The translations under genes were made by a program, and so were the position numbers. Below, in pieces: positions 25,147-25,817 of a stretch of DNA of 64,000 bases (its first letter is position 1; every line of letters begins with the position of its first letter). The stretch lies in NCBI GenBank assembly GCA_964421015.1, contig CAYQUS010000001.1, forward strand, positions 236,726 to 300,725, in the 5' to 3' direction. This stretch comes from an uncultured Planctomycetia bacterium (GTDB taxonomy: Bacteria; Omnitrophota; Gorgyraeia; Tantalellales; Tantalellaceae). Under the pieces are notes generated by a model, which searched no databases, had not been told where the DNA came from, and saw only the letters and a program-made list of their open reading frames with translations.

Positions 25147-25175
25147 AAATTATCACATTTACCCGGGCTTGTCAA
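25147..25175 (-). promoter_or_regulatory. Candidate sigma70 promoter (TTGACA, 17 nt, TAATTT) for rplM-rpsI.
   Basis: Read directly. The leader to the rplM ATG is about 85 nt. Confidence 0.45.
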
Positions 25176-25361
25176 GGGGTTTTAGGAAAGAAGAAACGTA
25201 GAGAAGGCGCTATAGGTCACCCTGCGAAGTTACAGAAGATCCGCGTGGAGTAACAATGGCTTTATCCCGGTTGGAAGCCCCGGCATCCTTAATGGGCATG
25301 AGACAGACAGCCTCATACAGCCAAGCGGAAGAAATGCCTTAGGATCCCTCTATCCTGGATA

Positions 25362-25535
25362 CTATTCCCCGAAAACAGCCCTGTAAAGAGCCCTTACCTG
25401 TTTCTTGTAATAGGTATCAAAAACATTGCGCACGACCTCTTTGGATACGGCTTTGCTCGTCAGATCGGCCATTTTCTTGTTTTCCCGTCTCTGTTCGTTG
25501 ATAGTGACCCTGTGGGAAAAATTTTTCTTTGTCAT
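25362..25535 (-). CDS. Small ribbon-helix-helix (CopG/Arc-like) DNA-binding protein, 57 aa. It is not in the ORF track because it is under 60 aa.
   Basis: Manual translation gives MTKKNFSHRVTINEQRRENKKMADLTSKAVSKEVVRNVFDTYYKKQVRALYRAVFGE. The pattern is a beta-strand (RVTINE), helix, a T/S turn, then helix. Its ATG overlaps the upstream stop as ATGA. Confidence 0.5.
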   Translation of the reverse strand: MTKKNFSHRVTINEQRRENKKMADLTSKAVSKEVVRNVFDTYYKKQVRALYRAVFGE

Positions 25536-25705
25536 TTCTCTTCCTCCCCCTTTTTGGTGAACGTTATGGTGCCGTCATCCCCTACGAGAAACGCCACCTT
25601 GTCTCTCTTTCTTATATCAAAATAATCCTGAAGCACCTTGGGGATGAATATCTGCCCCCTGTCGGATACCGTAGAGTAGAATTTAAATCCTCTTTTTCTG
25701 GCCAT
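25532..25705 (-). CDS. AbrB/MazE/SpoVT-family swapped-hairpin DNA-binding protein (antitoxin-like), 57 aa from the ATG with an AAGGAG SD. The track ORF starts at the TTG at 25747.
   Basis: MARKRGFKFYSTVSDRGQIFIPKVLQDYFDIRKRDKVAFLVGDDGTITF matches the AbrB N-domain / VapB-MazE fold pattern. Confidence 0.7.
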   Translation of the reverse strand: MARKRGFKFYSTVSDRGQIFIPKVLQDYFDIRKRDKVAFLVGDDGTITFTKKGEEEK

Positions 25706-25730
25706 ACGCTCCTTCTTTTTTCCAAGTACA

Positions 25731-25764
25731 AAACAAGTATACAACAAGTATCTATACTTGTCAA
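25731..25764 (-). promoter_or_regulatory. Perfect sigma70 promoter TTGACA, 17 nt, TATACT for the AbrB-RHH cassette. A 9-bp inverted repeat ACAAGTATA/TATACTTGT and a direct repeat ATACTTGTT x2 overlap the -35, spacer and -10. This is likely an autoregulatory operator.
   Basis: Read directly. The -10 is at 25736-25741 and the -35 at 25759-25764, read on the minus strand. Confidence 0.5.
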
Positions 25765-25817
25765 ATTTTTGCGAAAAATTTTTAGCCGGTTAAATAAAAA
25801 TTATTCGCGGATGATCG

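Follow-up and report, generated by a model that had tools for sequence, protein, structure and literature searches.

A probable autoregulated pair of small genes behind a conserved, phased operator in Omnitrophota

Introduction

AbrB, Abh and SpoVT share an N-terminal swapped-hairpin DNA-binding domain of about 50 amino acids (aa). AbrB is known to repress its own gene and recognizes a loose consensus, and the small protein AbbA, an acidic DNA mimic, is dedicated to AbrB-type regulation. The same fold is found in MraZ, a conserved regulator embedded among housekeeping genes, and in the MazE, PrlF, VapB and PemI antitoxins. Here we describe a locus that resembles each of these systems in part. 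It consists of two overlapping genes, ORF1 and ORF2, each encoding 57 aa, which lie between truA and rplM on a 64,000-nt stretch of DNA from an uncultured bacterium placed in Omnitrophota (GenBank assembly GCA_964421015.1, contig CAYQUS010000001.1, positions 236,726 to 300,725 of the forward strand). This whole stretch is referred to below as the window, and its own numbering is used for all coordinates.

Omnitrophota are uncultured, widespread, very small and possibly host-dependent bacteria. To our knowledge, the regulation of their genes is essentially unknown, and we found no paper linking the phylum with AbrB-type proteins or with the ORF1-ORF2 pair. An initial annotation, made from the window alone, had read the locus as an inserted cassette of two antitoxin-like proteins. 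On balance, we favour the interpretation that the two genes form an operon of Omnitrophota that is inherited vertically and is under negative autoregulation, and not a toxin-antitoxin module.

Results

The locus and its operator

All genes at the locus are on the minus strand, in the order truA (26552-25818), ORF1 (25705-25532), ORF2 (25535-25362), rplM (25054-24626), rpsI (24610-24215), argC and argJ. The TGA of ORF1 overlaps the ATG of ORF2 in an ATGA at 25535-25532. A Shine-Dalgarno sequence, AAGGAG (25714-25709, read from the sequence), stands 6 nt before the ATG of ORF1. That of ORF2, GGAGG (25547-25543), stands 7 nt before its ATG and falls within the last codons of ORF1 (KGEEEK), which therefore double as the ribosome-binding site of the second gene. 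Upstream of ORF1, a -35 hexamer TTGACA (25764-25759) and a -10 hexamer TATACT (25741-25736) are separated by a 17-nt spacer and match the consensus at 11 of 12 positions. The initial annotation had placed both genes, their overlap, the AAGGAG and this promoter correctly.

The promoter is threaded with four 8-bp boxes, also on the minus strand. Box 1, ACAAGTAT (25761-25754), overlaps the -35 hexamer and is in inverted orientation, being the exact inverted copy of box 2, ATACTTGT (25751-25744), which occupies the promoter spacer. Box 3, again ATACTTGT (25740-25733), overlaps the -10 hexamer and begins 11 bp after box 2, while box 4, GTACTTGG (25729-25722), is a degenerate copy with one mismatch that begins a further 11 bp downstream, near the expected start of transcription. 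The three direct copies thus start at 11-bp steps. By chance, 0.14 occurrences of an 18-bp palindrome of this kind would be predicted in the window with as many as 3 mismatches allowed, and one was found. The direct-repeat pair of boxes likewise occurs only once in the window, at this promoter. There is no second operator in the 64 kb, where 8 additional single half-sites, at one mismatch, occur in isolation within long open reading frames (ORFs). In all, ORF1, ORF2 and the operator are each present in the window exactly once.

In order to follow the boxes across species, the upstream regions of 18 unique loci were aligned on the -35 hexamer. This phylogenetic footprinting revealed a near-invariant 33-bp block, TTGACAAGTAT..aTACTTGtt.TATACTTGT, whose flanks are unrelated between the 18 loci except for a T-run from the upstream terminator. 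The conservation of the boxes is therefore far beyond chance. Within the block, the -35 hexamer is the same in all 18 loci, box 1 is invariant, TACTTG of box 2 is kept in nearly all loci and TATACTTGT at box 3 is invariant. Box 4 is seen as TACTTGT(T) in many loci, not in all. The distant lepB, hflX and icd loci described below carry an identical block. The promoter repeats pointed out in the initial annotation are thus real and, judged by this very strong conservation between species, appear to be an operator.

A search of 241 million metagenome records for the degenerate pattern ACAAGTA-N6-CTTG-N3-TATACTT returned 106 loci. The operator is followed by ORF1 and ORF2 in 43 of them (40 unique), by ORF2 without ORF1 in 8 (6 unique), and by ORF1 on a contig that stops short of ORF2 in 3. 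In a further 7 loci, the sequence stops no more than 250 nt after the match; 5 of these carry the full operator. The remaining 45 matches lack the full three-box consensus, and those inspected are unrelated promoters, some of them viral. Wherever a complete operator copy has enough downstream sequence, ORF2 follows (51/51), and no complete operator stands ahead of any other gene among these loci. One exception among the 45 matches is the site TGAACAAGTATATATACTTGTCTTATACTTGTC (at about position 1365 in L045, and also in L047 and L125), which has three boxes at the right spacing and no -35 hexamer; neither ORF1 nor ORF2, nor any long ORF, lies downstream of it.

Genomic distribution and selection

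Relatives of the pair were collected by look-ups of ORF1 and ORF2 homologues and by a scan of 185,579 species genomes. The order leuCD-leuB-asd-truA-ORF1-ORF2-rplM-rpsI-argC-argJ-argB is kept in diverged Omnitrophota, where the proteins encoded in the truA-rplM slot share 59-88% identity with ORF1 and 46-74% with ORF2 of the window. In addition, the pair is found with the same operator in at least four other housekeeping neighbourhoods, namely: between lepB and pgsA; between hflX and hrcA; between a nitroreductase or DUF1846 gene and icd-guaA; and upstream of fabG-acpP-fabF. The pair had been described as inserted, and this does not agree with its synteny in the truA-rplM slot across diverged members of the phylum.

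Both genes are under purifying selection. Synonymous sites are saturated between loci, with a proportion of synonymous differences (pS) of about 0.7-0.8, while the proportion of nonsynonymous differences (pN) is 0.08-0.23 for ORF1, as compared to 0.09-0.22 for rplM, which encodes ribosomal protein L13. The value for ORF1 is below that of truA. For ORF2, pN is 0.14-0.40. Among 72,556 plasmids, there was no match to ORF2 and one weak ORF1-like match. Neither protein was found in IMG/VR, in which the viral contigs matched by the DNA pattern carry an unrelated type of promoter and encode no ORF1 or ORF2. Since the pair is syntenic, is constrained like a ribosomal protein and has no convincing plasmid or viral match, it appears to be a core, vertically inherited gene pair and not a toxin-antitoxin cassette. 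Mobile insertion was ruled out by the phylum-wide synteny together with the negative plasmid and viral searches.

It should be noted that one metagenome-assembled genome (MAG), JBAYES01, holds two full operator-ORF1-ORF2 copies on different contigs (L011, identical with L104, and L012, identical with L126). One copy occupies the truA-rplM slot and the other lies upstream of fabG-acpP-fabF; the second copy could be a true paralogue or the product of a mixed bin.

ORF1

The best profile matches of ORF1 are to PrlF models, with E-values of 2.7e-7 for the NCBIfam PrlF equivalog model (positions 11-60 of 114) and 1.1e-6 for Pfam PrlF_antitoxin (PF15937; profile positions 2-47 of 99, 29.1 bits against a cut-off of 32). 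These are followed by the NCBIfam AbrB domain TIGR01439 (2.3e-5; 24.0 bits against a cut-off of 28.3) and by MazE_antitoxin/SpoVT-AbrB (PF04014; 0.0098, 16.3 bits against a cut-off of 24.7). The matches are confined to the N-terminal DNA-binding half of the longer models, and most ORF1 homologues have precomputed matches to PF15937. There is no match to MraZ (PF02381) at E-values up to 10. When a profile of 34 homologues was compared with the sequences in the PDB, it found the structure 2glw at 1e-5 and the SpoVT N-domain at 3e-3.

The AlphaFold2 (AF2) model of ORF1, which as a monomer model cannot display a hairpin swap, has strands at residues 7-12, 36-41 and 47-51 and a helix at 23-28, with a predicted local distance difference test score (pLDDT) of 73. 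In Foldseek, its best named match is SpoVT (2w1t; probability 0.87, template modelling score 0.51, 32% identity, E-value 0.42), and there was no match at E-values of 0.001 or below. The AbrB/MazE-type assignment made in the initial annotation is consistent with all of these searches.

Only the residues KKGEEEK follow the last strand. The 34 homologues are 56-87 aa long, and any extra length is N-terminal. A C-terminal multimerisation domain is present neither in ORF1, which ends at residue 57, nor in the homologues. The family shares an invariant core, TVSDRGQIFIPK.LQ.YF.I..RDKV.F, whose invariance parallels that of the operator. On the basis of profile and model comparisons, ORF1 is thus predicted to be a minimal AbrB/SpoVT-type swapped-hairpin domain and nothing more, without a C-terminal extension that could serve as a toxin-binding tail.

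ORF2

Searches of Pfam, NCBIfam, PADLOC and PHROGs gave nothing above noise for ORF2. A profile search of 1.8 billion cluster representatives returned 35 relatives, all of 56-79 aa, and a second search returned 90 proteins of 49-80 aa, of which every one with an organism name is from Candidatus Omnitrophota. ORF2 is therefore a new family of small proteins that annotation pipelines mostly call 'hypothetical' or skip altogether. Its members are typically about 58 aa long and very basic, with a median isoelectric point (pI) of 10.2, which is also the value for the protein of the window.

The N-terminal half of the family is basic and variable; it differs by subfamily and carries 4-residue glycine-rich insertions. 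The C-terminal helix, [VI][FY]N.[FY]Y[KR].QV.ALYR.V, is amphipathic and near-invariant. It holds L50, the sole invariant residue of the family, as well as Y43, Q46, V47 and Y51, each conserved in at least 90% of members. The AF2 model (pLDDT 82) consists of a coil at residues 1-11 and helices at 12-28 and 32-55.

The initial annotation had assigned ORF2 a clean ribbon-helix-helix (RHH) pattern. Our searches leave this fold unsupported. None of 41 family members matches an RHH family in Pfam at E-values up to 10, and the comparison of the ORF2 profile with PDB sequences gave noise only (best E-value 1.2), with no RHH entry. An hhalign comparison with a 9-member RHH profile gave a probability of 0.8%, whereas RHH proteins left out one at a time as controls gave 12-94%; the RHH profile was assembled from manually entered sequences, and this result is taken as supporting evidence only. 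Furthermore, no N-terminal strand or helix A is conserved across the family alignment. The putative strand and first helix differ among subfamilies (HRVTINEQRRENKK, KGINARRRENKK and QACEIGGSIYGKKR) that share the same operator.

Which protein reads the boxes

Among the two proteins, ORF1 is most likely the reader of the boxes. It is favoured because it has a DNA-binding fold and a core as invariant as the operator, because subfamilies with an identical operator differ in the N-terminal half of ORF2, and because one ORF2-like gene stands without operator and ORF1. This last gene was found in the dcw cluster of L026 (1255-3069), which contains mraZ, an unrelated 63-aa ORF, the ORF2-like gene (P0073, 62 aa) and rsmH; the mraZ promoter carries GTGG repeats at a spacing of about 10 nt.

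If ORF1 is the reader, the layout suggests how the operon would work. A near-consensus sigma-70 promoter is built into the four boxes, which cover the -35 hexamer, the spacer, the -10 hexamer and the start of transcription, and the 11-bp steps place all of them on one face of the helix. ORF1 dimers filling the boxes would exclude RNA polymerase, so that the operon would shut itself off and hold both proteins at a low, buffered level. The ATGA overlap and the internal Shine-Dalgarno sequence would ensure that ORF2 is made in a fixed ratio with ORF1. As for ORF2 itself, it might bridge ORF1 dimers or promote their oligomerisation and add non-specific affinity for DNA, replacing the C-terminal domain through which AbrB forms tetramers and which ORF1 lacks. 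Alternatively, it might be the dose-controlled payload of the operon, i.e. a small basic nucleic-acid-binding protein under the control of ORF1.

Several observations weigh against this interpretation. The scores of ORF1 lie under the curated cut-offs of Pfam and NCBIfam, although the E-values are significant, and its AF2 model is only moderate (pLDDT 73). The only demonstrable target of the operator is the promoter of the operon itself, and no second target was found. This is the classic autoregulatory layout, and a regulatory role wider than the operon is a conjecture. Finally, at 6 unique loci (L055/L103, L078, L079/L123, L089, L102 and L118), a perfect operator is followed by ORF2, sometimes N-terminally extended, after a leader of 46-190 nt, and ORF1 is absent from up to 14 kb of surrounding sequence; the truA-rplM slot is occupied by three of the solo-ORF2 lineages. 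Therefore, either ORF1 acts in trans from elsewhere or it is not the reader of the boxes. Action in trans is plausible because the pair is present twice in full, on different contigs, in a single MAG, JBAYES01.

The alternative is that ORF2 would read the operator, as an RHH-like or other small basic DNA binder, with ORF1 as an accessory modulator. The invariant core of the module would then be the operator plus ORF2, as ORF2 is present at 51 of 51 complete loci and ORF1 is absent in cis from 8 of them (6 unique). The strongly basic character of ORF2 (family median pI 10.2) fits this role, and its predicted order of coil, helix, turn and helix is compatible with an RHH monomer. Moreover, RHH proteins such as omega are well matched to arrays of short repeats in direct and inverted orientation. 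Against this, an RHH signal for ORF2 is missing from every test, and its putative strand and helix 1 vary by subfamily when the operator is the same in all of them. The L026 gene suggests that ORF2 can function without boxes, and it is ORF1 that combines a bona fide DNA-binding fold with an invariance equal to that of the operator. We thus regard ORF2 as an unlikely reader.

A broader proposal can also be formulated. ORF1 and ORF2 would together form a 'split AbrB', in which a swapped-hairpin reader and a co-translated basic subunit for oligomerisation or nucleic-acid binding assemble on phased boxes. As a cofactor specific to the phylum, or a chromatin-like protein, ORF2 would assist AbrB-fold regulators generally (mostly ORF1, and MraZ in L026). 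The module would then be a core global regulator of Omnitrophota whose operator is under stricter conservation than most of the coding sequence at the locus. L026, as a single case, hints that ORF2-type proteins may accompany AbrB-fold regulators generally. As a whole, we consider this proposal unlikely.

A toxin-antitoxin pair as an improbable alternative

Another reading of the locus is a type II toxin-antitoxin pair, with ORF1 as the AbrB-type antitoxin and ORF2 as a new, very small toxin. Its architecture is the classical one: the AbrB-type gene comes first and overlaps the next by 4 nt, and the promoter contains an operator rich in repeats. ORF1 has weak matches to PrlF, MazE and phage antitoxin models. 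However, ORF1 corresponds only to the DNA-binding half of the PrlF model (2-47 of 99), without the neutralising tail, and ORF2 matches no toxin or defence family. The pair is also single-copy in the window, syntenic across the phylum, constrained at the level of ribosomal proteins and absent from plasmids and viruses. Furthermore, the occurrence of ORF2 without an adjacent ORF1 would be lethal for a toxin unless its antitoxin were supplied in trans. Taken together, these observations make a toxin-antitoxin pair improbable. They also speak against the orphan antitoxin pair and the decayed toxin-antitoxin locus proposed in the initial annotation, given the strong purifying selection throughout the phylum and the absence from plasmid and viral collections.

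The downstream tail and the rplM promoter

Between the stop codon of ORF2 and the rplM promoter lies a spacer of 186 nt (25176-25361, minus strand), which is not conserved. In relatives, this tail measures between 37 and 245 nt, and no alignment between loci is possible. Its folding z-score of -0.56 is no better than that of shuffled sequences, and a terminator scan found no terminator-like site in it. A search of Rfam at a permissive E-value gave one overlapping match, of 14.6 bits against a gathering score of 45 bits. According to a small-ORF list and a cross-locus alignment, the tail contains no ORF longer than 29 aa and none that is conserved. Thus, as the initial annotation had noted, no conventional toxin follows the pair, while the toxin RNA or peptide that it had considered for the tail is ruled out, since the tail is unconserved, unstructured and without a conserved ORF. 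That the locus is a decayed toxin-antitoxin system, or one whose toxin hides in this fairly long tail without an annotated gene or is the third small gene seen beside the pair in some relatives, is extremely improbable, given the properties of the tail, the absence of that third gene from the window, and two intact genes under strong selection throughout the phylum.

The downstream boundary of the module is a promoter-like block for rplM-rpsI, TTGACAAG...AAATGTGATAATTT (25147-25175, minus strand), which contains no operator box. In the form TTGACAA-N8-AAATRTGNTAATTTTAC, it is strongly conserved throughout Omnitrophota, in 12 unique loci. The 5' leader after it is about 45-115 nt long and has hairpins that vary by locus; no ribosomal protein leader in Rfam matched. 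Regulation of rplM-rpsI by the pair was considered and rejected, as the rplM promoter is separately conserved and free of boxes and the pair also occurs away from rplM.

Other genes and elements at related loci

The third small gene, here termed orf3, stands beside the pair in several lineages and encodes 53-107 aa (L022, 3216-3377; L032, 3704-3865; L018, 2636-2959; L091, +447 to +719 relative to the operator; also in L023, L073 and L111). It follows ORF2 or, in L018, is placed between ORF1 and ORF2. Its products share the motif [VM][KR]Y.T...[IV].C....[DE][ED]A...AGEYLRGNE, which has an acidic N-terminal version, VKY.T...IVC...DEEA.HIAGEYLRGNE, and sometimes end in a C-terminal membrane helix. 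The gene has no Pfam family. As a missing partner of the pair in the window it was rejected, being absent from all 64 kb.

Several features of individual loci are recorded here. In the window, the DNA from the truA stop codon to the -35 hexamer contains, at 25771-25808, a 14-nt inverted repeat rich in AT, GCGAAAAATTTTTA / TAAAAATTATTCGC (93%). It is probably the truA terminator, because relatives carry GC-rich hairpins with T-runs at this spot. In L010, a 314-aa ORF (795-1739) between ORF2 and rplM stretches the tail to 1200 nt; by eye, it resembles a tyrosine transposase of the RAYT/IS200-like type. In L027, the pair is bounded on both sides (540-600 and 1190-1416) by long runs of heptanucleotide repeats of the GTCACCC / GTGACGG type. 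In L025 (2045-2075) and in the 3' part of L024, the gene after the pair, hrcA-like in look, is preceded by a textbook CIRCE element, TTAGCACTC-N9-GAGTGCTAA, behind a TTGACA/TATAAT promoter. Finally, an unrelated promoter, TTGACAAGTACAACTTCTTGTACTATACTTGAGTACAAGAAGTTGT, with a long perfect palindrome, ACAACTTCTTGTAC / GTACAAGAAGTTGT, was found ahead of a 61-aa ORF in L034, L054, L075, L083, L136 and L140, one copy being on an IMG/VR contig. It probably belongs to a different autoregulated small gene.

Discussion

The locus offers a candidate for a phylum-wide regulator, single-copy in the window, together with an exactly defined putative DNA target, namely four boxes at an 11-bp phase within a consensus promoter. 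It also offers a new family of small proteins, ORF2, and thus a testable entry point into the regulation of an uncultured phylum. The specificity of the operator sequence allows it to serve, in complete genomes, as a probe for the module and for any regulon, for example in the form of TACTTGTT-N3-TACTTGT pairs. A word of caution also follows from this work: an AbrB-type gene with an ATGA overlap and a palindromic promoter is by itself no sign of a toxin-antitoxin system.

Among described systems, the RHH proteins CopG, Arc, omega and ParG resemble ORF2 in size, in the order of helices after an extended N-terminus and in the use of operators with short direct and inverted repeats. ORF2 differs from them in that no similarity in sequence, profile or fold was detected, and it has a helix 2 of about 24 residues and a putative N-terminal strand and helix 1 that are not conserved. 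AbbA is comparable as the small, dedicated partner of an AbrB-type regulator; it is acidic, however, and ORF2 has a strongly basic pI of 10.2. No relationship in sequence between the two was noticed, and none was looked for.

The MazE, PrlF, VapB and PemI antitoxins share with ORF1 the N-terminal fold, and the best profile matches of ORF1 are to PrlF models. Gene order, the 4-nt overlap and the position of the operator in the promoter are also alike. Unlike these antitoxins, ORF1 is without a toxin-binding C-terminal half and has no recognisable toxin partner, and the pair is phylum-wide and vertical instead of patchy and mobile, with a constraint like that of ribosomal proteins.

MraZ is likewise a conserved AbrB-fold regulator embedded among housekeeping genes, and its promoter has short direct repeats about one helical turn apart. 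In L026, moreover, an ORF2-like gene lies downstream of mraZ, with the unrelated 63-aa ORF in between. ORF1 differs from MraZ in having one domain instead of two and no match to PF02381, and the sequence of the boxes and the genomic position (truA-rplM and not the head of the dcw cluster) are different as well.

The closest comparison is with AbrB, Abh and SpoVT. ORF1 aligns residue by residue with their swapped-hairpin domain of about 50 aa, its best solved relatives being the SpoVT N-domain and 2glw from P. horikoshii, and its position behind its own promoter and operator matches the autorepressing layout of AbrB. In contrast to AbrB (about 94 aa) and SpoVT (178 aa), ORF1 ends after this domain and lacks a C-terminal domain for multimerisation; nearly always, if not always, a second small protein is translated together with it; and its putative target is a sharply defined, phased 8-bp box, in place of the loose consensus of AbrB. 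What is new here is the phylum-restricted partner and the unusually conserved operator, while the AbrB-type autoregulatory operon is already known and no new principle is involved. By analogy, the module would work like an autoregulated AbrB or MraZ-type repressor operon, even as it looks like a type II toxin-antitoxin operon.

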